64,000 nt of DNA from NCBI GenBank assembly GCA_000091205.1, contig AP006491.2. One strand, 5' to 3'. The translations under genes and the position numbers were made by a program. Shown here piece by piece: positions 6,572-57,563 of the stretch (the stretch's first letter is position 1; each line of letters begins with the position of its first letter). Source of the stretch: Cyanidioschyzon merolae (lineage: Eukaryota). The notes below the pieces were generated by a model. The model had not been told where the DNA came from. It worked only from the letters and a program-made list of their open reading frames with translations, and searched no databases.

Positions 6572-6608
<37 letters not shown>

Positions 6609-6832
6609 ACTGACACCGAGGGTAACGGTCTCACAACGTCCGGAACTTGGGGAAACTCCGTCTCCCCCTCAGCCTGGTGTGGCTCTGCGAGCACCAACAA
6701 TGACCCCCGCTCAGCTCTCCCTGTGTGCTTACCCCATAACTTCCAGTTGAGCGGTAAGCTGCCACCTAGCAAAAGGAGAATAAAAAACGTGAACAAAAAG
6801 TGACGGAGCGCAGCTTTTTGAAAAGCCGCCAT
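2807..6832 (-). CDS. secreted mucin-like Thr/Pro/Ser-repeat protein with Cys-rich ectodomain and EGF-like module (paralog B)
   Basis: The track ORF starts at a TTG (6856). The first in-frame ATG is at 6832 and gives [26 protein letters not shown], a signal-peptide-like N-terminus. There are long (TP)n runs, 20-aa [20 protein letters not shown] repeats, a Cys-rich block ([15 protein letters not shown]...) and an EGF-like [25 protein letters not shown]. It is collinear with the ectodomain of the 11830..18837 ORF but stops (TAA) just before the position of that paralog's transmembrane helix. Confidence 0.7.
5430..5680. repeat. 60-bp tandem repeat x4 (coding, 20-aa Ser/Pro repeat of mucin paralog B)
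   Basis: The unit ggtgataccgaggtactcggtgagctcgttggcaaatgcgacgcacttggtgaagggctc repeats almost perfectly, head to tail. Confidence 0.85.
6060..6600. repeat. hexamer/12-mer microsatellite-like arrays (GGTGTA/GGTGTC/GGCGTC)n encoding (TP)n on the minus strand
   Basis: Visible long runs of gtgtaggtgtaggtgtcggtgtcggc. The plus-strand GVGVGV ORF 5967..6803 is the antisense of these runs. Confidence 0.85.
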
Positions 6833-11829: not shown

Positions 11830-14016
11830 TCAGCGCGTCACCGAGGTGCTGCGCGATCGCGAGCGCTTTCGCTGAGACAATACACTCAGTGCAGCAGCGG
11901 AACTCGAACGCACCAGCTTTGTACTCGAGGGCGGCAAGGCCCCTGGCATGCTTCCCTCGAGAGCGCCCTTGCCCGCGAGCATGTCCGACGCTGTAGGCAC
12001 GAGAGCTTCAATGAATGCACGAGCGTCGAGCATACAACTTCCACCAAAGAACACCTGCGTGCCGCTCGACTCCGAAAGATCATAGGCGTACCGCGTCTCA
12101 TTCCACGAGAGGCCGCCAATGACAAAGATAATGATGCGACGCGTCGCAGACTCGTCTACGCTGCCAACCGATGACGAAGAGGAACGTCGACGATTGCGAC
12201 GACCGAGAGACGACTCACGGATTGCCGACGACGAACGACGCCTGCGAAGACTTCGACTCGTGCGGCGAATACCGCTCTCCTCGTCATCGGTAGAGAAATC
12301 GGAGAGCTCACCGGCTGACGAGTCGTCGGACATGTACGCGCGATCGAAGTGGCGGCTCTCGCCGGCATACGGGAACGCGGACTCACCGAGGCGACGCTCG
12401 ATAAGCAATGTCGCAAGTTTCGCGAGCCGTCCATGGGTCTGTTGCATGGCTTGCATCTCCGATGGCGTCTTCCGCAACGGCACTCCGTAGGCGATGCACA
12501 AACGCTCAATGACAGCGGTCAGCTGCGGTGCAGTCCGGATATCCGATGCTGTGGTAGAGGTTCCAGTCGATGCACTCGACCCTGCCGAAGTACTCGAAAG
12601 CGCCGCCGATCCCTGTGACGATCCCCATGACTGGTGCTCCCCGAATGAAGAGCGAGCAAATGCCATCGAGACCAGCTCCTGAATCTCAGCTGTGCTCGTA
12701 TTCTGCGTGAGCGCAAACAATACAATCAGACGAGCTTTGTCCACCAGGCGAATATTGTCCTCGTCGAGCAATTGTCGCAGCTGTCCTCGGACACGCGTTT
12801 CAGCATCGGTACCGACGACACGCTGCGCATTGAGCATGTCTCGTTCGAGAGCAGCAATCCTGGCGATTTGCGCATTCTCCCAGAGATCCTGCGCGCGACG
12901 AGCCAGGCGCTGGTGACGCTCCAGTGACGCAGCGTCGGCATCGCTAGGCAGCAAAACGTTCGAGTCGGAGGTGCTCGTGGCGAGCGCGCCTCGTTTCGCG
13001 GTCCGGAGGCGCCCGACCTGCTCCACTGGGCGATAGCGCACGAGGCTCCAGACATCGTCAGCGTACTCATCGAGCACCAGCTGGGATCCAGCACCGCTAT
13101 CAGCCTCCAGCAACGAAGGGAATTCCTGCTTCAGCACCGTCTGATACGTATCATCGTGCAACAGGGGCGTCAACAGATCGCAGTCTCTGTCAACAATGAG
13201 GAGCACCGTCCGAGAAGCTCCAGCTCGAGGAGCGGATCCCGCTCTTGTCGGCAGAATGAGAGGACCGTACTCGTCGAGTATCCTGACGAGCTCCTCTGCG
13301 ACGGCTGCGGGTGCGCCCGTGAACGAGTCTCGCGCGAAACGGATACGCGGTCGCTCCTGCAGTACGGAGCACAGCGTCAACAAGGACTCGGCAATGGTTT
13401 GCGGCCGCACCGGCTGCAGATCCGCAGGATAACGGCCGAGATGAAACAGGCGCTGCTCGAATGCACAGAAATCGATGTTGAGTTCCGTGAACTGCGCAAG
13501 CCGTTCGACGAGCTGCGATGCCGCCCGAACTCGATCAAGATACGTTTCGTCGACGCGAGATGTCGCGAAAACTTCAATGATGGTCTTGCTGGAGACCTTG
13601 GGCGTCTCCGAGTCATCGTGTTCTCCGCTTCCTCTGTCAGACGCTTTGGTCACATGTTCAAGCGACGCAATCAGCGTATTCACCGCGTTCGACGTCGGCT
13701 TGAAGAGGTACACGAGACGCCGACCTTGGTCGCTTGGCGGCAACGCGTTGAGCGTTGGCGGCTGCTGACCAAGTTCCTCAACAAGGAACACACCATTGCC
13801 CACGAGGTCACTCATGCGGCACGCTGCAGACAATACCTGGATGCCGCGATCGTCTGCTACTAGCATTCCGGGAGCGCGACGCTGATCAGCGGAGCTGCCG
13901 CGGGAGTCTTCCGCACCGGCAAGCGACGACCTTGCTGTGCCCGCCAGCATGCCGTACAGCAGGCGCTCTCGCGCGAGTTCGCGCAGTGTGGCGTTCGGGC
14001 CCACAACCAGAGGCAT
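11830..14016 (-). CDS. Sec1/Munc18 (SM) family-like protein module, ~729 aa (possibly Vps33/Vps45-like)
   Basis: Begins [24 protein letters not shown]. Contains [24 protein letters not shown], which matches the SM-family LLILDRxxDxxTPLLHxWTYQA motif, and C-terminal [20 protein letters not shown], which matches the SM C-terminal iivFviGGvTysE motif. It has low-complexity S/R-rich inserts. It is in the same uninterrupted reading frame as the upstream mucin-like module, with no stop codon between them. Confidence 0.6.
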
Positions 14017-17000
14017 GGTAACCACATTGGCGCTGTCGACTGTGCCCAGTGCGGCAGCTGTGCTGCCAGTTGGTCTCAACGCTGCCACATCAACGGTATC
14101 GTTCTGGGAGACTCGGGATCCGGGAGCTATTCCCGCGAGTGCCGCTGACGACGGCACTGTGCCTGTTCGGTTGCGCTGGCGTTGCTGTCGACGTCGCCTT
14201 CGCCGCAAGAAAAGCCATACAGCCAACACGGCGAGAATCAGGGCAGCAGCACCGGCCACAGCGCCTCCAATGATTGCCCCCAGAGGTGCACCCGAGCCAG
14301 ATCCGCTGCCGGAAATCTGAGAGGGGTCACCTGTGGCGACACGTCGCACCTCCACTGATACCACGGATCCATTTGGAGGGAACGCCTGTCGAACTTGCTC
14401 ATAGAGGAACACAGTGCTTAGCAGACGGGTGACCACATTCACATCGCTCGGTTTCAGGATCAACTGTACGGCGCCGGTAGTGGTGACACTCGTCGGTGCC
14501 CGCATCAACATGTAATGCAGGGAATTATAGGACTCGCTGCCGCCGACCACGTGAATGCGTACCAACGAGATCTGCGCAATGGACTGGATGCTTTGCATCA
14601 GCAAATCGCGGAAGCGGGCGTTGTTGGTGCTGTTGTAGAACTGACTATACGACACGCCACGCAATTCCATCAAGAGATCCACGGCATCGTAGCCCGAAGG
14701 AGGCGGCGGAAAGCTCGGTAACGCCAAACTGGATGGCGAAGGCGACGCAGACGCTGTCGACGACGACGACGACGATGATGATGAAGGCGCATTCTGGCAC
14801 AGCAAACCTCGATAGCCACCAACGCAGTAGCAGACGCCACTGACGCATACCCCGTTTCCACTGCAGCAGTTTGCCGGCGAGACGTCCGAATCGTTGATGC
14901 CAGGCGGCCGGCACGAAGCGGTGCATATCCTTCCACTGAGATCATACAATCGCCCGGGCTGGACGACGGAATAGAGCGGCTCCAATGTCGACGGTTTGCC
15001 CAAAAAGTCCAACGAGACTAGACTCCGGTTCTGGGAAATCTGAATGCTCACATTTCCATTCGTACTGGAATTGTGATGGCTACGCTGATGACGAAGCTCA
15101 CGAAGCTTCCTCGCAAAGGTGTTCTTGATGTGTGCCGAGTGGTACGCAGTGGTCATATTTTGGCTCACATTCTGTGCCTGGAAAGCATTCGTCAGCACTC
15201 GACCGGAAACACGATTGTAGTGCCATTGCACTGCGCCAGCTGACGTGTTCGTACCGGCAGGTGTTGGGCTCGCGGTTGGCATCGGCGTCTCTGTACCTGA
15301 CCGCACAGGTGCTGATGTTACCGTCTCTGGAGGCGACGCGGTTGCACTCGCAACAATGGCGTTCGCTGTCGGGGTGACAAGCACCGCAGATGGCGTCGGC
15401 GCAACGCTTGAACTGAGCGGCAAGACTGTGCTCGTGGGAGTTGTCGTCGACATTGGTGCCGACTCGAAAATGACCTCTCCGCTGCTGGTCGTGGTGAAAC
15501 CGCTGCAGCTCGCCGGAACGCTACCCTGTCCATTGACCGCGATACACTCACAATTCTCGATGACAATTTCGGAGACGAAGACGCCGCAAACCTCGGCGAG
15601 CGTCTGCTGCATCACATACGCAACCTCAGAACACGTCCAGTACTCGACGACGTCCAGTGCCTGACAGTAGTATTCCCATTCGATCCAGACGCCGCCAACT
15701 GCAGGCCGCTCGGTCACGACTTCAACCCATTTCACTGGCGTTGGCGTTGGCGTTGGCGTTGGCGTTGCGGATGGAGCGGCGTAGCTGCTGGTACCGATCA
15801 CGTCGATGTACGAGTATTGCACGATATCGGTGTAAAACTCGACGCTGCCACAACTGGTTTCGTAGGTATTCACCTGCTCAAAGTAGTAGCCATTCTGGAT
15901 ATTGTCTCGCAAGGCGGCAGTGAACCCGGAAGCATACGTCGAGTACGTATCGATTTGGAGGTGCACCACCACGTCCCATTCGTTGACCTGCTCGCAGGAG
16001 CGAATCGTCACCACCTCGGACGGGATTCCGATATTGTCGCAACTGTTCAATATCGCTGTCTGCATCGAGTTACAGCTTAGTCGAACGGAGCCGGGCGACG
16101 CCGAGCCGCAGTACAAGGAGGTCCGAAGGTAGACACGACGAGGATAGACGGGCACCGGCTCGTAGACAAGATTGTCGCTGTTTCCAAGCAACGCCTCCAC
16201 GACACTCTCCTGCTGGGTGTACGTCAGCGAAGTGACGCTTTCAGAGTTCAGCGTCGTCAACGTCACTGTTGTTGATGTTTCGGCTTGCATAATGATCTCG
16301 CTCTGTAGCGTGTATGCTGCTTGATAGTTGCGCTGTTGCCAGTTTGCCGGGGCGTACCTGGGGTAGACTGCGCACGCTACGCTGAATGTATAGGTCGTAG
16401 AATAGCTGAGACGAAGAGCACCCTTACGTGAGCGCCGCCAACTTGTCAAACCGCGTAACCCGTTTTGAACGAGATCGGACGGCGGTGCACCCGCTCGCAT
16501 CACTTGAGACGAAGAGCACGGGCTCAGAGAAACATCCTCCAACGTGAAATCGGGAATGTCCGCGAATGCGTTGTAGTATGCCGTTTTCGCCGCGGCTTGA
16601 ATCGCCTCGCAGGAAATGTTTGCGTTTCCGGGAATCTGTATCGTGGGCTGGTCAGCAAATACAAGTTTTTGCTGAGGGATCGGGCTACCATTCGGAAGCG
16701 TGTTCAGTAGCGGGGTCGGTGTGGGAGGTGGCGACGGAGGTCCGACTCCTTGTGCGAGGCGCTGATGACGCAACGAGGTCGAGCTCAGCAGCTTGTTGAG
16801 TTCTTGCTGAGCTTGACTCGCATTAGATACGGGTACTGTTGCGAAAACAGTAAATTGCACAAGGCCACCGGCCCCAGAGCTCGTCTGACGGAACAGCGTC
16901 GTAAGGAATGGTAAATCGAACGACGCACCCGCTGGGAGAAAGCGCTGGATGCGTTCCTGTAGCAGTACTTCTCGATTCAGCGGCAAGCCTGAAGAGAAGC

Positions 17001-18837
17001 ATCCATCGGACACGGTGACAGCACTCGGCGATATGCCCAAGGCGGATGCAACTGACGCAGACAGAGCAAGCGATGCGGACGAGCATGAAGCCTCAGTTCG
17101 AACAGAGAGGAAGGCGCGCCCAACAATGGACGTCGTAGCGGGTGTTGGTGATGTTGACGGTGCAGGCGTGCTTGTCGCGTTGCTCACAACAGGCGTCGAT
17201 GATACAGAAGGCGACGGTGCAGGCGTGCTTGTCGCGTTGCTCACAACAGGCGTCGATGATACAGATGGCGACGGTGCAGGCGTGCTTGTCGTGTTGCTCA
17301 CAACAGGCGTCGATGATACAGATGGTAGAGGCGTAGGCGTGCTTGTCGCATTGCTCACAACAGGCGTCGATGATACAGAAGGCGACGGTGCAGGCGTGCT
17401 TGTCGTGTTGCTCACAGCAGGCGTCGATGATACAGATGGTAGAGGCGTAGGCGTGCTTGTCGCGTTGCTCACAACAGGCGTCGATGATACAGATGGCGAC
17501 GGTGCAGGCGTGCTTGTCGTGTTGCTCACAACAGGCGTCGATGATACAGAAGGCGACGGTGCAGGCGTGCTTGTCGCGTTGCTCACAACAGGCGTCGATG
17601 ATACAGAAGGCGACGGTGCAGGCGTGCTTGTCGCGTTGCTCACAACAGGCGTCGATGATACAGAAGGCGACGGTGCAGGCGTGCTTGTCGCGTTGCTCAC
17701 AACAGGCGTCGATGATACAGATGGTAGAGGCGTAGGCGTGGGCGTGGGCGTGGGCGTCGGTGTTGGCGTAGGTGTCGGTGTTGGCGTAGGTGTCGGTGTT
17801 GGCGTAGGCGTCGGTGTCGGCGTAGGTGTCGGCGTAGGTGTCGGCGTAGGTGTCGGCGTAGGTGTCGGCGTAGGTGTCGGCGTAGGTGTCGGCGTAGGTG
17901 TCGGTGTCGGCGTAGGTGTCGGTGTCGGCGTAGGTGTCGGTGTTGGCGTAGGAGTAGGCGTAGGTGTCGGTGTTGGCGTAGGAGTAGGCGTAGGCGTCGG
18001 TGTTGGCGTTGGCGTTGGCGTTGCCCGACGGGTAGACGTCATTGCCGGTGTTGAAGAGGCAAGCGAATCTACAAGGCTGTTTCCATGAATGTAACTATCT
18101 CGCGGCCGAGACGTCGGTGTCGCAGAGCCTGTCCCTGAACTCGTTAAACTTGGTGTGAAAATCGCACTCCCACTGTTTGAGCTAATTCCCGTTCCTGTGG
18201 ATGATGCAGAAGCGGAACTAGTCGCGGTATTCACGCCGAAGCTGGGCGATGGTTGCAAAATAGGCTGAACAGTAGGTCCTGTTGTGTGCTGCGTATTCGG
18301 TGATGGTGATGGAGTTGGTGTAGGAGACGGTAACGGTGTCGGTGTAGGCGTCGGTGTAGGTGTAGGTGTAGGTGTAGGTGTAGGCGACCTCATAGGTGTT
18401 GGCGTCAGCGCTACCGTGGGTGTGCTCAGCGCCGGTGTCGAGACGGGACCGGGCGTCGAACTAGTTATGCTGGTTGGTGGCCCAGACACCGCTGAAACCC
18501 CAGAGTCCGTCGAGGTGCCACTCCCGCCTGTCGACGCAGCAGTGCTCGTCCCTGTAGATGTAGGTCCCGTGAAGCTGGTGCCACTACTGCTACTGTCAGT
18601 GAGGCCACCAGGCCCAGAGTTACGCCCGCCCAAAGCAGGACGCAGCATCTCGAACCAGTCGCGTTCCTCGAGTGACACATGGTCACTTTGCGAGGGTGCC
18701 TGTCGCGGACCCGCCGCGCTTGCGCAAGCCCGAATCGGTCCCCAAACTAGCGAAAGCAATAATAATAAAGATAGAACAAGAAAAATTAACGTTCCATATC
18801 TTGATCCTCTCATCGTGCGTAAAGTGCCTTCATTCAT
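14017..18837 (-). CDS. mucin-like type I membrane protein module (paralog A): signal peptide, TP repeats, 19-aa repeats, Cys-rich ectodomain, EGF-like module, TM helix, poly-Arg stop-transfer
   Basis: ATG at 18837. The signal peptide is [25 protein letters not shown]. It has (TP)~60, about ten [19 protein letters not shown] repeats, the EGF-like [25 protein letters not shown], and the TM helix [24 protein letters not shown] followed by [14 protein letters not shown] (fwd ~14185-14290). No stop codon follows. The frame continues into the SM-like module. Confidence 0.65.
17150..17740. repeat. 57-bp tandem repeat x~10 (coding, 19-aa repeat of mucin paralog A)
   Basis: The unit gcaggcgtgcttgtcgcgttgctcacaacaggcgtcgatgatacagaaggcgacggt repeats with a few point variants. 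It is followed (17740-18010) by (GGCGTAGGTGTC)n arrays encoding (TP)n. Confidence 0.85.
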
Positions 18838-33780: not shown

Positions 33781-33884
33781 AGCCCTGTCCGCGATTCGAA
33801 CGAGATCCCTCGGAGGGTTCGGCTGTTCCGAGTCGGGACCTTCTGTTTACAAGACAGATGCTCTAACCGCTGAGCTAACAGGGC
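33781..33884 (-). tRNA. tRNA-Thr(UGU)-like gene with a 31-nt hairpin insertion between the anticodon arm and the T arm
   Basis: The minus-strand reading is GCCCTGT TA GCTC AGCGGTTA GAGC A TCTGT CTTGTAA ACAGA ... TCTCG TTCGAAT CGCGG ACAGGGC T. It has a perfect 7-bp acceptor stem, canonical D arm (A box), a perfect anticodon arm with UGU, a TTCGAAT T-loop (B box) and discriminator T. But 36 nt, instead of ~5, lie between the anticodon stem and T stem. These 36 nt form their own hairpin (CTCGGA...TCCGAG). Confidence 0.5.
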
Positions 33885-33949: not shown

Positions 33950-34880
33950 CTCAAATGCGTTCCGCATCTCGGTGCGTGTCATTGAACGCTTTTCCGTAGT
34001 GTATAGCAGGAGCTGGAAATCACGATACAATATACCCCATATTTCGTGGACGAACGGCCTTTAGGATGTATTCTTTACCGAGGAGTGCAAGGAGGATAGC
34101 ATGCGTCCTTCAGGTCAGTTATTGCCCAGTACTCAGATGGTGAAGAACCCTGAAAGAAAGCAGGATACGCGCTCCGCGCCAAAAACCGATATGCTCACAG
34201 CGTGCTTGTGGTAAATAGTAGGAAACGAGTCGTTGATCACTGTGTAAGGTAAGCAAAGGCGGCGATAGCGGCCGCCACGTGCGTCTGTGTCGCTCAACAG
34301 CTTATTCGTGTGGTCCTGAAAACACTGGTATACAGGCGCAAAAACGTTGTAGTTTACGAACGGTCATCTTCCATCGAAATCGCACCTACAACGTTCCGAG
34401 AACGTTGCGATGAGTATGGAGCGCAGGGGCGTCGATATGTTTTTTTTCAGTCGATGAGGCCTTCTTCGGATGAATCGGTCGGGGTGTATATGGGTATTCG
34501 CGGGGTAGGCAGCCCGTTCTACGAAAGATCGAACCCGAGGTGAACGACGACATCATCATCATTATCTGCTCCAGCTGCAGTGGGTTCATTTGACGGCCTC
34601 AGTTTCGCTCGTCGAGAAGGCTGATACCACAGCATCGATCACTTTGTCGAATCATTAAAGACTTTTCCCTGGAGTCTCGCGACGTTCCTCAATTGGTAAA
34701 CGTGGTATTTCATCATTCCCGTTGCGTTCGAGCTTTTGCCGATTCTATCGCAGTAGAGCTGTTTATCATTCCTGCATGTTTTACTTGGTTCAAGCCCATT
34801 AAAAAGAATGTTTTCTATTGTGGAACTTGATGCTCGCTTCACCGGGCGAATTTGTCTGTTTGATAGAACGTTTACGCTGT
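33950..34880 (+). repeat. dispersed repeat family R1, copy A (~0.9 kb)
   Basis: Collinear ~70-75% identity with 43480..44360. Example blocks: tccttcaggtcag, gcgctccgcgccaaaaa, catcttccatcgaaatcgca, ctcagtttcgctcgt..ataccacagca..ttgtcgaatc. No long ORF. AT-richer than the flanking genes. Confidence 0.6.
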
Positions 34881-34919
34881 ACTTGGGATCTAGATTGCGC
34901 GATGGATATACGCTTTCGG

Positions 34920-35525
34920 GAAAGCGTCCATAACGCTCCACCTACCTCCAAGTTCCATTACTCATACCTCTTCTTGGATACACTGGTCACTTCGCACGTT
35001 CTTTCGCACTCCGAGTGCCCGCCCTGATCGTCCGCGATAGCGCTTATACCGCTGGTGCGGGTACAGCACAGAGTCAGAACGGCTTTGCCATACCACTGAG
35101 GATATCGGACCGAGGAATGCTTCACCTGACACGGAGTCGGGGCTCATAATCAATCTAGGAACGAGCAAGTTGTGCTGATAGCCTTACTGCTCGCAACAGC
35201 GCGATGCGATGTTACAGGAGCCCACTGTAACCAGGATGACCTCAGGACGCATTATACGCGCTCCGGGTCTAAGGATAAACTGCGTTTCGGACGAGTTTCT
35301 GCTCAGATCTCGCCACAGCACCCGCCAATCTGGAGAGCATAAAGCACGAACCTTGCAGACTCGTCCACATCGCGGGACCTTACGCCTAGAAGGTGAACTT
35401 TCGACCGTTCGGAAAGCTTTCCCCCTTCAATGCTTACCGTTCGAGGGGGAAAGAAATTGTTATCTCGTTGCTAGTTCGCGGCTCGTTTCTGTACTCTTTT
35501 TTCTGCGTTACGCTCGATCACAAAG
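34920..35525 (+). repeat. dispersed repeat family R3, copy E (~0.6 kb), ends ~10 bp before the ABCG start region
   Basis: Collinear with 52140..52730. Shared blocks: gtccgcgatagcgc.tata.cg, agcacga.cc.tggcagactcgt and a conserved hairpin (tcccccttcaatgcttaccgttcgaggggga, 35420..35450). The latter is matched by ttccccttttaatgtttaatgtagacggggaa at 52634..52665. Confidence 0.55.
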
Positions 35526-35663
35526 ATCGCGATGCGTACGAATTCGCGCGTGAGTGTCGAGCCTCCACGCACATGGCGGGTCAGCGTTTCAGTTTGCAGC
35601 TTCTTGTTCATAGTGCACATATCGGTGTGGAGGTTGGAGCAAAGTGTTTCTTGTTTTCGCTGG

Positions 35664-38345
35664 ATGGCGAAAACACAAGCGCGGCAAGGGCAGCGGAACG
35701 CGGGGACCGACACAGCGCAGGGTCTTGGTCAAACTGTCGCTCCAGCGGCGGAGCCCGAACCGAACGATGCTCGAGAAGCACCAGCTCCGCAGCTGGAGAC
35801 TTCTTTATATGATAACGACTGGACCCATCGAACACATGCACTCGATGTGTTACGGTGGCTTGGATTTGGTGACTCTGTTGAGGCGCGCAGGCTCCGACGG
35901 TCGTTTGTTGCGCGGAAGCGTTCGCACTCGCCGGGTCAGCAGCGAGCCGGCGCACCGCCTTCGGGCCAGAATCGTTTTGACGGTCACCGTCGGAGTGCCG
36001 AGGACTCTACCTTTGCAGATCTTGAGAACGCTCGCGACGCTGGCGCCGAAAGTTCGCCGCACTGTGTGCGATGTGGCACGGAGTATCACGGTGAGGTGAT
36101 CGTGCGCGACGTTACGTTCTGCGTGCCGAAGCGAGGCACGGGCTTCCTTCATCTTGGCTTCTGTGGCGCTGAGGTGGCGCCTTTGCTCGAGCACGTCTAC
36201 GCGTACTTTCCACCGGGCAAGCTGTCCGGCATTATGGGCCCTTCGGGTTCAGGGAAAACTACGCTCCTAAATCAGATCGGGGGACGCATCCGTACCCTGG
36301 GAGCGACCGTCGCCGGGGAGATTCTCATTGACGCACATCAAAGGCCGAAAAAGGCAAAACGCTTCGTCGGCTACTGTGAACAGAACGACGTCCTGCCCGG
36401 TGACTTAACCGTCCGAGAGGCGCTCTGGTACGCTGCCCAGTTGAAACTACCGGAGCACTTATCGGACGAGGAGCGTTGGCGACGCGTAGAAGAGGTAATT
36501 GAAATTCTGAGTCTCGAGAAAATAGCGGATCAGCGCATCGGCGCTGATAACGATCGACAAATCAGTGGCGGTCAGGCGAAGCGGGTCAGCATCGCACTGG
36601 AAGTCATTGGCGATCCCCCAATATTCCTTGCTGACGAGCCAACGAGTGGGCAGGATACGCGCACCGCTTACTCTGTATGCCAAGCTTTACAGAATGTGGC
36701 ACACATCGGAGGCCAAACGGTCATTGCGACGATTCACCAGCCCTCGGTGGATGCCTGGGCCCTCTTCGATAATTTGGTGATCCTGGCGGCAGGTCGGGTG
36801 CTGTACAGTGGACGCGCGCAGCGTTTCCGCGACTACCTTATGCGAATAGAATTCCCGATTCCGGACAACCTCCATATAGCTCTACCTGACTACTTTATTG
36901 CCGTTGGTGTCAAGGCCGAAAAGAAGGAGCATCGCCTGAAAGGCAAAGGAGCAAGGAACTTTGATGACGAACAGGAGGACGAGGATCAGGACTTCGAAGG
37001 TGATGGTAACGACAACACCGTACAAGGCAATTTTGCTGAAATGAACATAACGGCCCACAAAAGATCCACTCGCGGTCAGCGTCGTGCGAAAACCTGGATA
37101 TCGGGGCTCACGCTTCCCTTTGCTGCACAGGAGTCAAGTCTGCGGTCCAGACGAATGACACGTGAGCGCAGTTGTACAGCATCAAACATGGACAACATTG
37201 CCGAGGTAGCTCGCCGCACCTTCGAGCAGCGTCAATTGTCCCATTATTCCGCAGTGAACGCTAGTCTGCCAGAGGAACACGAGCGAGCCATCAGGCAACG
37301 CACTGATGGCGACGACGCCCTCGTCGAGTCGATACTCGAGCGGCAGCGCTCTCAGTCACCAATGATGACATTTCGCCGCACCCCACAGGAATGGCGTGAG
37401 ATCTGGGAGCAGACTACCGAATACAAACGCCTTCGCTATGTTGCTGAGAGCCGCGCGAAATGCCTCGGGGAGTGCGGACTGCCGTACGCGTTCGGTGAAC
37501 CGACGTACATCACGAGCTGGTGGCGACAATTCCGGACGCTAACGGTACGCGCGTTTCAAGGCGAGGCGACGTCGCCACGTTTTCTCGCTTATCGCCTCAT
37601 CCTGGTGATCCTCGTGAATCCCGCAGGTCTGGCTACGATTTTTTGGCCTGCTCTGCGGCATCATTCGTCGTTGGCTCAGAACACTGCAGCAGCATCCTTT
37701 GTCGTGGCTGTCGCCAGTTGCATGGCGATTATGCGCACCTCCGTCGCGTTTTTGGAAGGGCGTGCGCTCATGTATCGTGAACGCTCTAGCGGTGCGTATC
37801 GCTCCTCCGCGCATTACCTGTCGACAATCGCCATGGAGGCACCGTTCAACGTATTAACCGCGATTGTTTTCTCCATTCTGGACTACTGGGCATTTGGTTA
37901 CCGCAAGAACGTCGGAGCGTTCTTTTTCTTCCTTTTCATCGTATACTTGAGCAATGCTTGTGCAGTGGGTATTGGACAGGGCCTGGCAGCGATTGCCCCG
38001 GACATAACGTTCGCATCGTCCTTTGCACCGGTTGTCTACATGACGTTTGCGGTTCTCGCGGGCTATCTGCTGCCACAGAGCCTCATCCCAATTTACTGGA
38101 AAGTTCTTCTGTACTACGCGAATCCGATCAGCTGGGCGTTTCGAGCGATCCTTCTGAATGAGTGGCAGCCGTACCTGGACGGAGCAACGCCGCCACCCTA
38201 CTTAGACTATCGTTCGGAACTGCGAACGCTTGGTTTGGAAAATCAGAGCAGATGGACAAGTGTCTACGTGTTGGTGGGCATTTATGCCGGCGCACGGCTC
38301 GTGACCTACGTCTTTCAGCGTTTCCTGAAATACGCCCATAACTAG
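35664..38345 (+). CDS. ABC transporter, G family (White-type half transporter: NBD then TMD)
   Basis: Walker A GIMGPSGSGKTTLLNQIGG, ABC signature plus Walker B ISGGQAKRVSIALEVIGDPPIFLADEPTSGQD, H-loop ATIHQPS, then an ABC2-type 6-TM domain. The ORF opens at ATG 35532 but has a hydrophobic leader. ATG 35664 (MAKTQARQGQ...) is the more plausible start. There is an unusually long acidic/basic linker between the NBD and TMD (~36950-37450). TAG stop. Confidence 0.9.
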   Translation: MAKTQARQGQRNAGTDTAQGLGQTVAPAAEPEPNDAREAPAPQLETSLYDNDWTHRTHALDVLRWLGFGDSVEARRLRRSFVARKRSHSPGQQRAGAPPSGQNRFDGHRRSAEDSTFADLENARDAGAESSPHCVRCGTEYHGEVIVRDVTFCVPKRGTGFLHLGFCGAEVAPLLEHVYAYFPPGKLSGIMGPSGSGKTTLLNQIGGRIRTLGATVAGEILIDAHQRPKKAKRFVGYCEQNDVLPGDLTVREALWYAAQLKLPEHLSDEERWRRVEEVIEILSLEKIADQRIGADNDRQISGGQAKRVSIALEVIGDPPIFLADEPTSGQDTRTAYSVCQALQNVAHIGGQTVIATIHQPSVDAWALFDNLVILAAGRVLYSGRAQRFRDYLMRIEFPIPDNLHIALPDYFIAVGVKAEKKEHRLKGKGARNFDDEQEDEDQDFEGDGNDNTVQGNFAEMNITAHKRSTRGQRRAKTWISGLTLPFAAQESSLRSRRMTRERSCTASNMDNIAEVARRTFEQRQLSHYSAVNASLPEEHERAIRQRTDGDDALVESILERQRSQSPMMTFRRTPQEWREIWEQTTEYKRLRYVAESRAKCLGECGLPYAFGEPTYITSWWRQFRTLTVRAFQGEATSPRFLAYRLILVILVNPAGLATIFWPALRHHSSLAQNTAAASFVVAVASCMAIMRTSVAFLEGRALMYRERSSGAYRSSAHYLSTIAMEAPFNVLTAIVFSILDYWAFGYRKNVGAFFFFLFIVYLSNACAVGIGQGLAAIAPDITFASSFAPVVYMTFAVLAGYLLPQSLIPIYWKVLLYYANPISWAFRAILLNEWQPYLDGATPPPYLDYRSELRTLGLENQSRWTSVYVLVGIYAGARLVTYVFQRFLKYAHN

Positions 38346-42754: not shown

Positions 42755-43138
42755 CTAGCTCCAAGCGCCGTTCCATGTGCTCAGCAAAATGGAAAACGTG
42801 TCGCGATCATACGGTAAATGAATACCGATGTGGAGGCGGATTCTAGTCGTTTTCGACCGGCCCATTGCTATCGACTTCAGCTTATCTTTGCATTCATCGA
42901 GTCTGAGAGGTTGCCCCACAAAGTTCGCTCGTGTTTGTTCCTCGGGCCTCGTCTTGAACACCGCACATCTCCTGGTATTGATGGTAGGGTTAAAGTCTTG
43001 GTTTACGAACTGCATGCATTCAATGACGCTTATTGATCGCACCGGTGCAAAGAGTCCTCGAACCGGTATCCTCTGTGCCACGACACTCTCGTTATTGTCC
43101 CGTCGGCAAAGCACCTCTTCTCGCGTATCTCCCCTCAT
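42755..43138 (-). pseudogene. degenerate fragment of a Fanzor/TnpB-like RuvC nuclease gene (second copy)
   Basis: The translation ...IECMQFVNQDFNPTINTRRCAVFKTRPEEQTRANFVGQPLRLDECKDKLKS... aligns with the RuvC-III region of the 55135..56133 ORF (EFVNRDFNAVINLRRCAVLEKRSPDSTRGNFVGQPIQVELYEKKLEA). The catalytic R-D is changed to Q-D. The upstream parts of the gene are missing or unrecognisable. Confidence 0.55.
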
Positions 43139-44360: not shown

Positions 44361-44849
44361 CAGTGAAACCGGTGCATTTTTTCGTCTTTCTTATGCAAAT
44401 CCTAGTCCCTCCGTGTAGGTCCTCACACAACGGCATCAACAATTGCTTTCATTTTAAAAAATAAGGAATGAGCATGAATGCACAATTCAGGAGATCGGAA
44501 TGCAGAAAAGCCAGCGGAGCGCTGACAGAGCAGCAAATGATACTGAGAGCGCGAGTTCGAGGACTCCTTGCACTAATGAGTTCAGAAAACGCCTAGAAAT
44601 GGAGGGAGGTAGCGAACCGAGACTTTAACACCGCCACTAATATCAGGACATGTGCGATGCTGACGACGATACCCGAGATGCTGAGGCGATCTAGTTTTGT
44701 GAGACAGCCTCTCAGGGTTAGAGCGTACAAGGAGAAGCGAAAACCGATAGCAAGCGGCTGGTCAAGAAACGTCGGGAGGCACCTGCGAGTGGGTAGATAT
44801 ACTTACTCTCTATCATTGTGAAGCGTTTTTTTGTTTCACTGACGATCTC

Positions 44850-50613: not shown

Positions 50614-51378
50614 CTAACCACGAGTTGAAGACCGGACACAAATGGAGCCCAATTCGTTCCCGAATTCACTGTAGACGGCAACAGGTCTTCGCGCGGCCCG
50701 GATTTCATCGATAGCGGCTTTGTAGTCCTTGGCACCAAACACTGCTGAACTGGCTACCAGGGCGTTCGCACCCGCCTCGACAACACGCCAGGCGTTGGAG
50801 CCCTTCACGCCGCCGTCGACCTCGAGCCAGAGATCATGCTTGCCGAGGCGATCAGCCATCTTCCGTATCTCGGTGATTTTCGGCAACACCTCGTCAATAA
50901 ATGCTTGCCCGCCGTACCCCGGATTTACGCTCATCACCAGCACCAGGTCCACGATAGGTAGGACGTACTCAATTGCCATTGGTGGCGTGGCCGGGTTCAG
51001 AACGACACCGGCACGACACCCGAGGCTTCGAATCATCTGCAGCGTTCGATGCAGGTGGATCGTCGACTCGCCCTCGCAATGCACGCTGATGATGTCAGCG
51101 CCTGCTTTGGCAAAGGCGGGGATGTGTTGGTCTGGATTCACGACCATCAAGTGAACGTCAAGCGGCCGCTGTGTAACCGGACGCAGCGCCTCCACGACGC
51201 CTGCGCCGATGGTTATTGGCGGTACAAAGTGCCCGTCCATAACGTCAACATGTATCCAGTCTGCACCGAAACGGTCTACGGCGCTTACCTCTTCACCGAG
51301 TCGGGCAAAGTTTGCCGACAGAGTGGAAGGTGCAACCACAACTTGCCCCGGTTTGGGCGTGGGGTACCCTTTCCACAC
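50614..51378 (-). CDS. RPE: ribulose-phosphate 3-epimerase (start codon unresolved)
   Basis: [19 protein letters not shown]...[14 protein letters not shown]...VHLMV...[18 protein letters not shown]...LEVDGGV all match RPE. The track start at 51378 is GTG. Reading upstream reaches a TAG at 51439-51441 with no in-frame ATG anywhere before the conserved N-terminal strand. The real initiator is therefore in an upstream exon or is non-AUG. Confidence 0.88.
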
Positions 51379-52139
51379 CCATGCGCAGGGGACGACCCTT
51401 TGCTGTGCTGCTGCGCGGTTTTGGTCCCCGCCTGCACGCTACCGTCTCTTACGTCCAGACATTTGCTTGCGCTCGAGAGCACTGTGAACCAGTTACTATA
51501 AACGCGCACATGGAACGAGTTCCAAGCGCCGGTGCAGCTCGCCTTGTCGTAGACACAGATGAGCGCTGGAGCGTACAGCGCTCGGTGGTACCTAGCGGCG
51601 TCGGTGGCGGCGGTGATGAAGCGTCTGAGACAGGCGTCGATGGCCGTCCAGTGACGGGTGTCAAATTTGATCTAAAACTGGAATGAGTGTTCAAGATTCA
51701 AAGGTTGCCGTTGCGGCAGCGGTGCCAGGCTGCTCTCTCGCAGGGATACTATTTACGTAGCTACGATCAATATCCAGAGCTGCATCTAGGATGCCTCCGA
51801 ACAGGCTCGCTTTGATCATATGTGGACCGTTTCGACGGGAACGCTTTCGACAGCACCACACGGACCTGGAAGGTCGTTCACCTATCTGTTGAGAAAAAGC
51901 GCATATACGGCACATGAACTGGCTGGTCCACGGACACGTCAGTGACAACTCATTTTCGCAATGCGTTGTGATATATCGAGTGAACCGTCGGAAAAACGTC
52001 TTTACCACTGAACGAGTTGAGTATACCTGACTAGCGGCGCGCGTGAAGGACACACTCGATTCCTTTTCGTTGGACGAAACGTTGACCCACAGAGCAGCAA
52101 TCCCTGAGAGCGTGCTCGGTAACCGCGCGTTGTGGGGTT

Positions 52140-52730
52140 TCCATCGTTCCGCGCCCTCCTCGCAAGTTCCGCTTCCCATACGTTCCCTCGGAGGTACCGA
52201 TTATTTTCAAGTTCGACCGTGTGCCGACTGCCCGTCGCGAGCGTCCGCGATAGCGCCTATAGCGGCGGCGCGGTCGTAGCATAGACAGAGAGAACCGACA
52301 TGCCATACCAGAGAGCGCATCGACTCGAGGAATGTCACGGCTGAGTCACGGTCGAGGTTCATGATCATTCTGGGAGCCTGCAAGCTGCGCTGGCAGACCT
52401 ACTGCCTGCGACAGCGCGAATCGATATCCTAGGAGTCCACTGCGACCAGGGCGACGCCCAGATGCAGCTTAACTGTCCCTAGTCCCAGAATGAATTGCTT
52501 TGTGGACGAGTAGCACAGGTTTCTTTCAAGAACGCGCCGCTGGGAGGGGCATGAAGCACGAGCCTGGCAGACTCGTTCGGCTCGCGCTACTTTCCGCCTA
52601 GACGTTAAACTTTCGGAAATACGGAAAAAATTTTCCCCTTTTAATGTTTAATGTAGACGGGGAAAGAAATCGATAGCTCGTTGCTCGTGACTCGTGAGTC
52701 TCTTTCCTTTTTTTTCTAAATAGCGCGGTT
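52140..52730 (+). repeat. dispersed repeat family R3, copy F (immediately 5' of the Fanzor-like element)
   Basis: See the R3 copy E evidence. Confidence 0.55.
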
Positions 52731-53355
52731 GAGACGCGCAATTCAGAGATCTGGCAGTCATGAGATATGACGCGCTTGTCGCCGTTGAAGGGAGACACGA
52801 TCCAAACCTTTATGATCCAGCAGTAAAGTAAAAGTTCTATTTCCGTTGAAGTCGTAGCAAACTGCAGTTTTCAGTTGAATCGTGTTTCAACCCTCAAATA
52901 AGTGTATTCAAGTCCTTTTTCGCGGTTTATAGGAGAAGCGTTCAAAGAGCGCCCTTTTTCAAAAAAAATAAAAAAGGAAATGTTATCAAAAACCAAGTCG
53001 ACGATCCTGGAGGCCAAGTGTCGCTGGCTGCCAGAAAAAACAAAAAACAGTACCGAGTCCAGAAGAAAAGAAAGAGAAGAAGGACCGAAAGGAGGGAGGT
53101 CCTACGTCGAAGGCTGCAAGAAAGACCACACTACAACGAACTGGTTATGAAAGCCTGTCTTCTTGAACAGATCAAGGTTCCGTGCAAGAAAAAGTTACGA
53201 GAGTCCATTCGAAACCGTTTTGAGCCGAACTCCATGACTATAATACAGGTGTCGTCAGGACTAATGCATTTGGCGGGGGAGATGTATCGCGAAGTGACGC
53301 ACATGGAAACGGTCCAGCTTCCGAACGAGTTTTCGACGAGACCTTTATTCGTCAC

Positions 53356-56133
53356 ATGACGATTGGTACAGCGGAAGCGCGGAGGGAAAATGAACGCGTG
53401 CACGTCCTGCACGAAAAACACCTCTTTTACAGCTTCGAGGGTACTCGGTATACAGGTGACGCGGATATTTACATGTACGGGGCGATGAAGTACCTGACGA
53501 ACCTGAAGAACCATGTGACGATGAACCTCGAACGTTTCATGATACGCGCCGTGTTTGCGCTGTACCCGGGAATCTCACGCAAGGGGATATGGGCGATTAT
53601 CAATGGCGCCACGAACGATCGCAGGCATGAAGATGAGGTCGAATTTGTCGAGAAGAAGGCGTCAAACGAGAGCACGAATGAAGCTTCTGTAATCCGTGCG
53701 GCTATGCAAGAGCACGGCGCAGTCATGGGGCTACCGAATCCAACAGAAAAGATGTCAGAGTTAAAAAAAGATAAGGAAAGGTACTATCGCCTCATCCTGC
53801 GCTATTTTGTGTTTCTGAATCGTGAACTCGAACGCAAGGCGGAGATGAAGCTGAGTGAAGAGACAAATGAAGAGTGGGAGAGACGGAAGGCTTTCCTAAT
53901 GGGGAAGCAGTTAAACGTGGTTCCGTTGTGCAACATCAAGTAGTATTTTGTGAGTATCGATTCAGGCGTCCTTTACGGCATCATGAAGGAGATCAGTCCG
54001 GGGTTCAATGTTAGCAGGGAGGACTTCATCGGTGAAAACCGGGAGACGTACTGGAAGAGTATCTTCGATTTCAAACGTCTCAAAGTCAGCAAACAAAAGT
54101 TATTCACTGGGATGATCGAAACCGATGGCGTAGCCATGTGTGCACACTATCGGCGGTTGAAGAAAGAGTGTCCAGTTCCACCCTCGGCTGCACCCGTGAC
54201 GAAGGATGAAGAAAACAAAGAAGAGGATCCTGCGATGCAGGAGGTGGAGGATAACGACTTTGTCGTTGACATTACGAAGGATGAAGATGAGAAGACGGCG
54301 GATCCTGCGACGCAGGAGGTGCAGGATAACGGCTTTATCATTGGCGCGGCGAAGCATGAAGAAAACAAAGAAGAGGATCCTGCGACTCAGGAGGTAGAGA
54401 ATAACGACCTTGTTGTTGACATTACGAAGGATGAAGATGAGAAGACGGCGGATCCTGCGACGCAGGAGGTGCAGGATAACGGCTTTATCATTGGCGCGGC
54501 GAAGCATGAAGAAAACAAAGAAGAGGATCCTGCGACTCAGGAGGTAGAGAATAACGACCTTGTTGTTGACATTACGAAGGATGAAGATGAGAAGACGGCG
54601 GATCCTGCGACGCAGGAGGTGCAGGATAACGGCTTTATCATTGGCGCGGCGAAGCATGAAGAAAACAAAGAAGAGGATCCTGCGACTCAGGAGGTAGAGA
54701 ATAACGACCTTGTTGTTGACATTACGAAGGATGAAGATGAGAAGACGGCGGATCCTGCGACGCAGGAGGTGCAGGATAACGGCTTTATCATTGGCGCGGC
54801 GAAGCATGAAGAAAACAAAGAAGAGGATCCTGCGACTCAGGAGGTAGAGAATAACGACCTTGTTGTTGACATTACGAAGGATGAAGATGAGAAGACGGCG
54901 GATCCTGTGATGCAGGAGGTGCAAGATAACGACCTTGTCGTTGACGCGACGAAGCATGAAGAAAACAAAGAAGAGGATCCTGCGACTCAGGAGGTAGAGA
55001 ATAACGACCTTGTTGTTGACATTACGAAGGATGAAGATGAGAAGACGGCGGATCCTGTGATGCAGGAGGTGCAAGATAACGACCTTGTCGTTGACGCGAC
55101 GAAGCATTAAGAAAACAAGAAGGCGGATCCTGCGATGCAGAATGTGCAGGATAACGACTTTGTCGTTGGCGCGGACCCTGGGAATACGAATATCATAACC
55201 ATCGCTGTACCCAAGCGTGCGGAAGATGGTACTGAAGGTAATTTACGTCAGAAAGACATGCGTCTTTTGAGATTCTCGAGGGCAAGATATTACCGAGAAT
55301 CCGGTATAATGAATGCGAGGAAGAAAATCGAGACTTGGAATTCAGGAATGAAAGAGCGCCTGGAAGCTTTGAGCGAGGTGACGAGCCGCGGAGCGGATTA
55401 TGAAGCTTTTCGGAGATTCATGGAAGTTCGTGTTGCCCATTGGGATGCGCTGTGGAAGGAGTATACAAAGCCCAGTTGGGCTCGTCTGCGAATGAATCTG
55501 TACGGTGTGAAGCAGCGGGCGTTTGCGAATTTTTTCAATCAGTTGAGCGCCCTGAAGGAGGATGAAAGTCAGAGGCTCGTAGTAGCATACGGAGCAGGGC
55601 GATGGAAGACCCAAAAAGGGACTACGCCAGCTCCAACGACAAGAACGTATAAGGAGTGCGCACGGCGTTTTGCCTCGATACCTATAGACGAGTTTCAAAC
55701 ATCGTATACACACCATGAACTGAGGTGCACACTCCAGAGGGCCGAGATGGAAAAGTGCCAGACGAACCCTGAGGATATGAAAAAGTACGGACCGCTGACG
55801 GAAGAGCAAATGGAAAGGAGGACGAAAGTTCGAAGATTATTTGTATTAGTAAGTACAACCGATGACGGCAAGAAACGCATGGAATTCGTGAACCGTGACT
55901 TTAACGCCGTTATCAATCTAAGGAGATGTGCGGTGCTGGAGAAAAGATCTCCAGATTCGACAAGAGGGAACTTTGTTGGACAACCTATCCAAGTCGAACT
56001 ATATGAGAAAAAGTTGGAAGCAGTAGTGAGTGGCTGGTCCATAGAGACGGGGAGGCGTCTGTACGTCAGTTGGAGACTTCTTGTCAAGGGCGGGTTTCTC
56101 GCCACTACTGTACACTGCTGTCGTTCGACTTAG
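53356..56133 (+). pseudogene. Fanzor/TnpB-like RNA-guided RuvC endonuclease gene (~920 codons in one frame) interrupted by two in-frame stops (TAG 53941, TAA 55108)
   Basis: Three consecutive track ORFs (53356..53943, 53950..55110, 55135..56133) are all in the same frame, each separated by a single stop. The last carries RuvC-I VGADPGNTNIITIAV (GxDPGxxN), the hallmark IPIDEFQTSYTHHELRC (vdEyyTSkxC, the RuvC-II region / start of a degenerate zinc ribbon) and RuvC-III EFVNRDFNAVINLRR (RDxNAAxNI). The TAA sits exactly where sister repeat units have GAA (..KHEENKEEDPA.. versus ..KH*ENKKADPA..), so it is a point nonsense mutation. Confidence 0.65.
54200..55180 (+). repeat. 150-bp tandem repeat x~6.5 inside the Fanzor-like ORF (50-aa acidic repeat)
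   Basis: attacgaaggatgaagatgagaagacggcg recurs at 54271, 54421, 54571, 54721, 54871 and 55021. The unit encodes TKDEDEKTADPATQEVQDNGFIIGAAKHEENKEEDPATQEVENNDLVVDI. The last unit runs directly into the RuvC-I strand QDNDFVVGADPG, so the array is a serial duplication of the segment just upstream of, and including the start of, RuvC-I. Confidence 0.85.
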
Positions 56134-56249
56134 AACGGCGGTGGTGGCTTGTCCATTAGCACGCGTCAACGCAGACTTAGGTGCCCGACGCTTCTTGGAT
56201 ACGCGCGCCGCCTGTAATGAACTGAGGAAACACCAGCAGCACTGGCGTC

Positions 56250-57563
56250 ATGCTTGAACGCGGTACGCTAGAAGCGGCGAAGACTGAAACGCCCGCCTCT
56301 CAAGCGGTTGTTTCGGATCACTCGGAAATAGATCGCGTCCGCGTAACGGTAACAAGCCGGGATCGACCGGGTATCACCGCAGCTATTACAGCTGTGGTGG
56401 CGCGATGCTCCTGTGAGATCCTCTCCGTGCGTCAAGTATGCGTGCGTCGACGTCTAACCTTGATGTTTGAGCTTCTAGTGAAGAACGCGTTTCCACAACA
56501 GTCTATCTTTCGTGAGCTTCTATTAGTCAGCAAGCGTATCGGAGTGTCCGTCGATTTCTCGCTACAGCCGTCAACAGAAATATCTTCCGCTGAGGCTTGC
56601 ATGCTGCAGCACGCGTCAGAGCAGTACGTCATTACCGCTATCGCGGCGGACTCGATTACTCCGGCGTTTCTCGCTGATCTTGGGCAGAAATTGCAAGAAC
56701 GGAACTTTGTTCTCGAGTCGGTGAACAAGTTGAGCCAGCATCGCCTCGGCTGCATTGAACTGGTGGTTTCATCCCCGGCGTCCTCGTCGTCCAGCGACAT
56801 TCAACAGTTTCGCTCGGAGATGTTTGTGCTTGGGCGCAAGTACGCGACCGATGTCGCCGTGCAAAAAGAGAGTCTCATCCGCAAAAGCAAACGCCTCGTG
56901 GTCATGGATATGGATAGCACGCTGATCCAACAGGAAGTGATTGATGAGCTCGCTCGCTATGCAGGCAAATTCGAGGCGGTGCAGGAAATCACGCACCGAG
57001 CCATGTGCGGGGAACTCGACTTTAGAACAAGTCTGTACAAGCGCGTGGAATGCTTGAAGGGAACGCCCGCCACCGTCTTTCAAAAGGTGATCGATCATCT
57101 GGTGTACACGCCTGGTGCGCATTTCCTGGCACATTCCTTGAAACGACTCGGGTACAAACTGGCAGTCATTTCCGGGGGCTTCGCTCCGATTGCCCAGCAC
57201 GTGCGACAGACGCTCGGACTTGATTATGCGTACGCGAACCAGCTGGAAGTTGGTCCGGACGGGTGTTTTACGGGCCGAACGGTGGGCCCCATTGTCGACG
57301 GCCAACGCAAGGCAGACCTCTTGATGGCCATCGCCCAACAGGAGCAGATCGACCTCGAGCAGACAATCTGCATTGGTGATGGAGCCAACGATTTGCCAAT
57401 GTTATCGATGGCGGGTCTCGGCATCGCCTTCAATGCAAAGCCTGCTGTCCAGGAGCGGGCAGCTTTTCGTCTCAATCGCCAAAGCCTCGACTCTGTCCTC
57501 TATTTTCTCGGTATTCCAGAATCTGAGCAGATTCAGTTACGAGAGCACAACGATGCATCGTAG
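56250..57563 (+). CDS. serB: phosphoserine phosphatase (SerB-type HAD hydrolase with N-terminal ACT-like domains)
   Basis: ATG 56250. HAD motifs: VVMDMDSTLIQQEVIDELA (DxDxT), ISGGF (motif II region) and ICIGDGANDLPMLSMAGLGIAFNAKP (motif IV). The N-terminal ~200 aa have ACT-like RVRVTVTSRDRPGITAAITAVV. Confidence 0.9.
   Translation: MLERGTLEAAKTETPASQAVVSDHSEIDRVRVTVTSRDRPGITAAITAVVARCSCEILSVRQVCVRRRLTLMFELLVKNAFPQQSIFRELLLVSKRIGVSVDFSLQPSTEISSAEACMLQHASEQYVITAIAADSITPAFLADLGQKLQERNFVLESVNKLSQHRLGCIELVVSSPASSSSSDIQQFRSEMFVLGRKYATDVAVQKESLIRKSKRLVVMDMDSTLIQQEVIDELARYAGKFEAVQEITHRAMCGELDFRTSLYKRVECLKGTPATVFQKVIDHLVYTPGAHFLAHSLKRLGYKLAVISGGFAPIAQHVRQTLGLDYAYANQLEVGPDGCFTGRTVGPIVDGQRKADLLMAIAQQEQIDLEQTICIGDGANDLPMLSMAGLGIAFNAKPAVQERAAFRLNRQSLDSVLYFLGIPESEQIQLREHNDAS

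Follow-up and report, generated by a model that had tools for sequence, protein, structure and literature searches.

A probable coding minisatellite of linker and RuvC-I strand units in a non-functional CMe-1A Fanzor1 copy of Cyanidioschyzon merolae

We analysed a stretch of 64,000 nucleotides from contig AP006491.2 of Cyanidioschyzon merolae (assembly GCA_000091205.1; hereafter the window), in which a Fanzor-like open reading frame (ORF) carries a long tandem repeat immediately upstream of its RuvC-I motif. With a probability of roughly 85%, we read this array as a coding minisatellite (a variable number tandem repeat, VNTR) within a defunct copy of the Fanzor1 transposon CMe-1A, in which a unit made of the linker between the WED and RuvC domains plus the first RuvC strand has been multiplied by misaligned copying, yielding a neutral spacer. 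The growth from about three to 13 units is ordinary repeat instability without sign of function.

Tandem Repeats Finder (TRF) reported one strong array, beginning at 54198 or 54200 and ending at 55168, with a period of 150 bp and 6.5 copies (score 1670, 96% matches, 0% indels), in agreement with a preliminary description of the locus made from the letters alone. Nested in it is a period of 75 bp (12.9 copies, 73% matches). When cut in codon register, the array comprises 13 units between 54202 and 55173, twelve of them 75 nt long (25 amino acids) and the last one 72 nt. The units belong to five types only and follow the order A(BC)x4(DC)DE, with A being unit U1, B being U2, 4, 6 and 8, C being U3, 5, 7, 9 and 11, D being U10 and 12, and E being U13. 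Reading along the plus strand, the single copy of unit A (KDEENKEEDPAMQEVEDNDFVVDIT; 54202-54276) is followed by four perfect copies of a 150-bp block of B and C (54277-54876; B is KDEDEKTADPATQEVQDNGFIIGAA and C is KHEENKEEDPATQEVENNDLVVDIT), by units D, C and D (54877-55101; D is KDEDEKTADPVMQEVQDNDLVVDAT), both delimited by unit comparison, and by the 72-nt unit E (55102-55173; KH*ENKKADPAMQNVQDNDFVVGA). Unit E is the original last unit, and its end is the true RuvC-I β1 strand. Within a type, identity is 100% for the four B, five C and two D copies, amounting to 0 differences over 600 bp of extra copies. Neighbouring unit types differ at 18-23 of 75 positions, whereas types two apart differ at 7 of 75 (A versus C, 9%) or 9 of 75 (B versus D, 12%). 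Because units two apart are so much more alike than neighbours, a misalignment in the 150-bp register would be favoured. The translated array comprises 324 amino acids with 33% Asp plus Glu and 8% Lys plus Arg, in line with the acidic insert of about 320 residues that had been described. It had also been pointed out that all units keep the reading frame; we see the same, and all units stand in the frame of the downstream RuvC domain because 75, 150 and the 3-bp deletion of unit E are all multiples of three, making frame preservation automatic. An antisense ORF of 335 codons at 54100-55107 was judged to be a by-product of the stop-free repeat.

Alignment to the published 3169-bp CMe-1A consensus (Additional file 2 of Bao and Jurka 2013, PMC3627910) indicates where the unit comes from. 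Every unit aligns to consensus positions 2122-2196. The unit runs from the acidic WED-RuvC linker (..AKHEEKKEADPATQEVQEN) to DFVVGA (...GTCGTTGGCGCGG), stopping after the first base of the GAC codon for the catalytic Asp (55174-55176), so that the units copy the segment encoding DNDFVVGA. In the published consensus protein this segment is present once, as ...PVAKHEEKKEADPATQEVQENDFVVGA followed directly by DPGNTN. Likewise, each of the eight distant homologues inspected (six being full-length proteins) possesses just one linker between the WED strand FTGTIETDGVA.C.H and the motif ND.VVG.DPG. A survey of relatives by regular expressions, of which only the main mode was used since mis-anchoring made its upper end noisy, returned motif spacings clustering at 34-62 residues, with values of 54, 79, 104, 129, 154 and 179 in the CMe-1 family. 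In a structural model of a family member with extra units (P0015, introduced below), FLVGAD of the last unit forms the β1 strand, residues 171-176, ending at the invariant Asp176. Together, sequence and model support the view that the unit is a duplicate of the WED-RuvC linker and the RuvC-I β1 strand, and the preliminary description was right to see in it a copied junction into the catalytic core. A single unit as the ancestral state is likewise supported by the sequence comparisons. The terminal GG of the consensus unit (..GGCGCGG) also closes its 5' flank (..CCCGTGG), which may be the trace of a microhomology and would fit a slippage-type first duplication. The primary 75-bp unit would have arisen by tandem duplication in the CMe-1 lineage, from the linker start to one base into the catalytic Asp codon. 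Each extra unit supplies a spare linker and a spare β1 strand devoid of the Asp, with only the last unit joining the real catalytic core.

The element hosting the array is identified by its sequence as a degenerate copy of CMe-1A. CMe-1A is the one Fanzor1 family that Bao and Jurka (2013; PMC3627910) describe for C. merolae, comprising about 150 copies that are each about 80% identical to a consensus of roughly 3 kb and lack terminal inverted repeats (TIRs). The neighbouring ORF at 56250-57563 is an exact match to the phosphoserine phosphatase BAM79981.1 of C. merolae 10D, which identifies the window as sequence of this strain. Using blastn, we located the window copy at 52140-56123 on the plus strand, covering consensus positions 70-3145. 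Its 5' part (52140-54268) corresponds to consensus 70-2190 at 82.6% identity and its 3' part (55100-56123) to consensus 2122-3145 at 89.6% identity; the element is about 10.5% diverged from the consensus. A search for a terminal inverted pair in 51800-56600 found none. On the plus strand, the N-terminal REC/WED coding remnant extends over 52980-54201, as judged by alignment to the consensus coding sequence, from which the ATG at 52980 is also the inferred start. Its ORF pieces are spread over three different frames, and it ends at the non-repeated linker start KECPVPPSAAPVT (54163-54201). The RuvC-type nuclease domain remnant (55174-56133, plus strand) keeps all three catalytic codons, namely Asp at 55174-55176, Glu at 55690-55692 and Asp at 55897-55899 for RuvC-I, II and III, and its frame extends to 56133 owing to the loss of the consensus stop codon.

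The assignment to Fanzor1 relies on profile and fold comparisons. Scanned against Pfam and NCBIfam, the ORF pieces of the window and close homologues gave no matches or spurious low-complexity ones, and no nuclease was retrieved from the PDB sequences, neither by phmmer with homologue P0003 nor by hmmsearch with a shallow family profile (A1). The family PF26935, precomputed for several homologues, was not reproduced with the Pfam scan and was left uninterpreted. A sensitive search of 1.84 billion cluster representatives yielded 1082 relatives, among them full-length proteins of 600-700 amino acids that are 35-49% identical to the query. With a broad profile (A3) combining the distant relatives and CMe-1 family members, hmmsearch against the PDB matched the structurally solved Fanzor1 proteins PpFz of Parasitella (9cf0, E = 1.4e-18), SpuFz of Spizellomyces (8gkh, E = 3.4e-10) and GtFz of Guillardia (9cer, E = 2.8e-5). 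For structure prediction, the query was P0015, a homologue about 76% identical to the RuvC part of the window copy, rather than the broken window protein itself. Based on the A3 alignment, AlphaFold returned a model with a predicted local distance difference test score (pLDDT) of 77.6 and a predicted template modelling score (pTM) of 0.71; a model from a close-family-only alignment (pLDDT 41) was not used. In a Foldseek search against the PDB, the top seven matches of the P0015 model were all Fanzor1 proteins (E 4.6e-11 to 9.1e-7), followed by Cas12 and TnpB. Alignment A1 has no variation at the catalytic Asp, Glu and Asp. In A3, two of the three positions, the DPG Asp and the DEF Glu, are likewise invariant, and the Asp of RuvC-III (RDxNA) is nearly so. 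At the zinc-ribbon position between RuvC-II and RuvC-III, the family reads THHELGC...EKC instead of four Cys, and one distant relative had a sub-threshold match to Cas12f1-like_TNB (E = 0.0023). An Rfam scan of the element gave no match. The profile and fold matches and the catalytic triad confirm the label Fanzor-like under which the ORF had been described; on this sequence and model evidence, it is a Fanzor1 homologue in a non-intact copy.

To place the array in the context of its family, we compared it with 80 related loci from hot-spring metagenomes, taking the distance between the anchors ..YRRLK and DPGNTN as the measure of unit number. At several of these loci the flanks are 98.7-99.4% identical to those of the window, and the samples therefore contain close relatives of strain 10D. 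By the anchor distance, unit number elsewhere ranges from 1 to 7, and 13 units occur in the window only. Dropping orthologous duplicates left 39 non-redundant loci, the window included, of which eight have one unit, five have two, 11 have three, six have four, five have five, three have six and one has 13; the 38 others thus hold 1-6 units, and one further allele holds 7. For 32 of the 39 arrays, the length is divisible by three. Two orthologous pairs, each with about 99% identity over 4-5 kb of both flanks, differ in unit number, with five units in L016 versus three in L017 and three in L041 versus seven in L080. Unequal counts in orthologous pairs show that the repeat acts as a minisatellite at individual loci. 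The expanded alleles of both pairs contain near-identical adjacent units, and those of L080 carry stop codons, indicating that expansion occurs in dead copies elsewhere too. The variation in unit number, down to differences between orthologous alleles, agrees with the proposal that the array grew by misaligned copying. Judged from these sequences, the 75-bp repeat is a family-wide feature and not private to the window locus, and its variation in length across the family is concealed by the published consensus with its one unit. An ancestral domain with the same unit number in every copy and no relation to RuvC-I, which the preliminary description had set against a local expansion, is not what the other copies contain.

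The array that the window copy started from can be approached through a separate copy. Units A, B and E differ from units 1, 2 and 3 of locus L023 at 9, 11 and 10 positions, respectively, as compared to 13-17 differences from the non-corresponding L023 units and 8-15 differences among themselves, A and E being the closest pair (8). Given that A, B and E are nearest to their matching L023 units, a three-unit array should already have been present in the common master element. A neighbour-joining tree of the array flanks is star-like, with copies about 10-12% from the consensus, and has copies with one or two units on basal branches and copies with three to six units in the main burst. The idea of a local expansion therefore needs to be divided: the 150-bp amplification and a step from AB to ABCD appear to be local, but the base 75-bp repeat is family-wide and would have numbered about three units in the master.

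Other alleles of the window locus add to this picture. Of the 10 contigs with the phosphoserine phosphatase gene next to it, each ends within or beyond the element. No contig from another strain spans the array, and all short-read environmental contigs of the window locus break inside it. The allele represented by L001 and L081 matches the window in its flanks at 98.7-98.8% identity and has the unit order (end of A)-B-C'-D'-E', and its B unit in L001 is base-for-base identical to window B. As a lone contig that breaks in the array, L001 may point to a five-unit allele of the locus. Unit D' of L001 (KHEDEKEADPVM...) does not have the B-like beginning of window D, whose first 31 nt are identical to B, and B and D' differ by 16%. 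This composition marks window D as a probable recombinant or converted unit, a B/D' chimera. Between E' of L001/L081 and window E, 7 of 72 positions differ, whereas the flanks differ by 1.3%, a discrepancy that identifies the array as a hot spot of sequence exchange. Contig L082 begins exactly at a D unit identical to window D, a hint that the array of that population is similarly repeated. Since the number of perfect tandem copies is difficult to establish, and with every short-read metagenome contig breaking within the array, the perfect 150-bp copies might be taken for an artefact of the reference assembly that conceals a shorter true array. We consider this extremely improbable, as the whole array measures less than 1 kb, comparable recent expansions were assembled through at L016 and L080, and unit B recurs unchanged in L001. 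Moreover, the break of L082 at the D unit is expected if C-to-B and C-to-D junctions both exist in a wild strain. The 10D reference genome was finished with Sanger reads, which also speaks for the assembled array.

One unit, as had been noted, carries a GAA to TAA change. This nonsense codon lies in unit E at 55108-55110 (plus strand), where the aligned consensus has GAA for Glu409. However, the expanded array and the TAA are not the sole damage to the gene. Alignment to the consensus coding sequence revealed frameshifting 1-bp indels near 53035, 53087 and 53323, as well as an in-frame TAG (53941-53943, plus strand; TCA for Ser320 in the consensus), which gives the gene another premature stop ahead of the array. 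With three indels, TAG and TAA, the window locus has five disabling lesions and no intact ORF. Relative to the consensus, the window copy has differences by codon position of.153/.104/.196 and.098/.063/.152, and this modest enrichment at third positions implies that part of its 10-17% divergence predates insertion, representing subfamily divergence rather than decay.

The presence of TAA in only one of 13 units had been taken to date the inactivation as later than the expansion, in that the array would have reached full size in an intact gene and the TAA would have come later and inactivated it. It can be added in favour of this order that the older 75-bp duplications, giving units A to E, clearly happened before the TAA arose, or in any case did not spread it. 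But unit E was never inside the amplified (BC) and (DC) blocks and could not have spread the TAA whatever the timing, so that the uniqueness of the codon orders nothing. Furthermore, each of the three environmental contigs that extend to this position (L079, L081 and L082) has the TAA, among them the allele with the different D' and E', and the alleles sharing it are about 1% diverged in their flanks. By comparison, the absence of differences among the amplified copies over 600 bp sets a 95% upper bound of about 0.5% divergence, lower than the roughly 1% between strains and the roughly 10% from the consensus. Considering also the four further lesions upstream, we regard the order first proposed as very unlikely; the likelier course of the last step is that the TAA came first and the amplification followed in an already dead gene.

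We next asked what the units reveal about constraint. Across the 38 non-redundant loci other than the window, differences from the unit consensus amount to.164/.122/.119 by codon position, without an excess at third positions, as compared to.088/.059/.19 in the RuvC domain and.126/.099/.164 in the 600 nt upstream of the arrays of the same copies. In the P0015 model, the pLDDT stays below 50 and secondary structure is absent over residues 92-158, a segment comprising the non-repeated linker start, two extra units and the beginning of the last one. We thus see no structured repeat domain that is folded and under purifying selection. The missing excess at synonymous sites and the predicted disorder argue, from sequence and model, that the extra units are a tolerated spacer rather than a selected domain.

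A different possibility is that the acidic repeat is, or was, a selected module of the CMe-1 Fanzor1 protein, for instance a disordered linker that can be tuned or an auto-inhibitory tail that mimics DNA, with an adaptive unit number of which the window array would be a relic. Such a module would account for the dominance of three- to six-unit arrays in the star-like burst, basal copies having one or two units, for the divisibility of most arrays by three and for the open frames of 772-778 codons that run through three- and four-unit arrays (L032 and L003). In distant relatives, P0204 for example, this linker varies as well and is in many cases acidic. Weighing on the other side are the codon-position pattern of the units, so unlike that of RuvC, the modelled disorder of the extra units, the frame preservation that comes automatically with a 75-bp unit, the finding that the largest array resides in a copy with five disabling lesions, and the expansion of L080, in which the units contain stops. 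Taken together, we regard selection of the module as unlikely. Were the repeated acidic linker nevertheless selected in successful CMe-1 masters, for which we likewise see only a slim chance, the WED-RuvC junction would accommodate, and might even profit from, an additional 50-125 disordered acidic residues. The number of units would serve as a rapidly evolving means of adjusting the activity or regulation of the nuclease, and the junction would be a natural insertion-tolerant site for engineering Fanzor editors. The long open frames with three or four units suggest that this junction may tolerate sizeable disordered insertions, a small possible lead for work on Fanzor proteins.

In the history that we propose for the minisatellite, its recombination mechanism and the order of events being inferred from sequence, master elements with about two to five units would have transposed, and most copies would therefore have inherited an array. 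After insertion, each array would have changed in length and sequence by misaligned homologous copying, for which unequal sister-chromatid exchange, template switching at replication forks and gene conversion are candidate routes. The window copy would have inherited a three-unit array A-B-E. An older duplication of two units, AB to ABCD, would have converted this into A-B-C-D-E, and a very recent amplification in the 150-bp register would have brought the array to 13 units, with conversion reshaping D and E. The first perfect copies would have made further misalignment easier. At the time of this amplification the gene would already have been dead, and the 12 extra units (299 amino acids) would constitute a neutral, disordered and acidic spacer and no new domain.

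Several points count against this account. Open frames pass through the arrays of L003 (778 codons, four units) and L032 (772 codons, three units), neither of which looks fully intact. Mobile masters evidently carried multi-unit arrays, and there is a small probability that the acidic linker matters to the protein. The basal position of one- and two-unit copies is suggestive only, as it comes from a midpoint root on a star-like tree. Both the copy-number polymorphism of the window locus and the pre-amplification state A-B-C'-D'-E' depend on the single contig L001, which may be collapsed or chimeric. Lastly, the identity of the copies could in part reflect ongoing homogenisation and not only recent duplication.

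Further pieces of CMe-1 are scattered over the window. At 34861-35504 (plus strand) lies a copy of the 5' 635-bp module of CMe-1A, corresponding to consensus 4-641 at 79.7% identity and to the short element that Bao and Jurka named TE-N2_CMe; 27 bp separate its end from a downstream ABC-G-type transporter ORF (35532-38345; Pfam ABC_tran and ABC2_membrane). A fragment of the RuvC-III end, consensus 2850-3019, is located at 42897-43063 (minus strand) within a 127-codon ORF (42755-43138), and a second one at 44515-44714 (plus strand), in opposite orientation and at a distance of 1.45 kb. Both are old, with 73-74% identity over consensus positions of about 2810-3019, and neither includes an array; between them, no pair of repeats of 25 nt or longer came to light. 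The ORF at 42755-43138 had been proposed as a clock for ordering the events, but as a C-terminal Fanzor remnant of about 73% identity that lacks the array it gives no help in this respect. Two homologues have unusual architectures. In P0088 (562 amino acids), the N-terminal region is complete and an internal deletion removes the WED end, the whole array and RuvC-I, the sequence jumping from ..EISPEFDIREEF to SKVTSRGADF..; the protein may be a deleted copy or a gene-calling artefact. P0115 (581 amino acids), a homologue of the RuvC part, has precomputed methyltransferase Pfam domains (PF13847, PF13649, PF08241 and others) and may represent a fusion or a read-through into a neighbouring gene.

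Of the remaining features, the only Rfam match in the window is a tRNA at 33781-33884 (minus strand; 47.7 bits). It spans 104 nt, as against 71 positions of the model, and the gene presumably has an intron. An ORF for ribulose-phosphate 3-epimerase at 50614-51378 (minus strand; Pfam E = 3e-82) lacks an in-frame ATG ahead of its conserved domain; its first possible start after the upstream stop is a GTG, and its exact translation is missing from the protein collection. Other strong coding tandem repeats occur at 5438-5677, 6040-6604, 17156-17721 and 17729-18021, within two very large minus-strand ORFs (2807-6856 and 11830-18837), and their types include a 60-bp unit repeated 4 times (98%), a GTGTCG-type hexamer repeated 94 times, a 57-bp unit repeated 9.9 times (93%) and a 36-bp unit repeated 8.1 times. 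With these further repeats in two ORFs, coding minisatellites are not rare in this stretch of the genome.

No mention of an internal tandem repeat in CMe-1A turned up in the accessible text of PMC3627910 or in full-text literature searches. The element and its Fanzor1 nature are already published, and coding minisatellites that give rise to disordered regions are a well-known kind; the inclusion of the first strand of the catalytic core in the unit is a neat detail without demonstrated consequence. For annotation, the locus is best labelled a CMe-1A pseudogene with an internal minisatellite, not a new nuclease architecture. Beyond that, it offers a clean, datable example of a two-unit register emerging in a minisatellite and then running away. 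Compared to CMe-1A as published, the window copy agrees in protein layout, in the absence of TIRs and in its old-family character (about 80% to the consensus), whereas the consensus DNA and its 734-residue protein have a single unit and the window copy is a pseudogene with 13. With SpuFz1 (8GKH), PpFz1 (9CF0), GtFz1 (9CER) and TnpB/Cas12, the family is linked by profile or fold matches and by the common Asp-Glu-Asp triad. The order of WED strand (F.G.IETDG), linker and h-h-G-x-D-P-G strand found in the solved Fanzor1 structures is kept here too. In those proteins, however, the linker is a single stretch of about 40-55 residues in HMMER alignments, unlike the repeated linker of the window copy. 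Where solved Fanzor1 and TnpB proteins have the usual four-Cys zinc ribbon, the CMe-1 family has HH...C...C. The Rfam scan identified no omega RNA in the window element. The array itself finds its closest parallels among coding minisatellites with disordered products, reported examples being the variation of coding repeats in yeast (bioRxiv 10.1101/339663) and the tandem repeats of Borg elements (PMC9879509). As in this class of repeats, the unit length is a multiple of three, closely related copies quickly come to differ in unit number, the product is predicted to be disordered, and a two-unit higher-order structure and homogenisation are seen. In contrast, the minisatellite described here resides in a mostly decayed transposon gene without a sign of selection, and its unit spans part of a catalytic-core strand rather than a linker alone.

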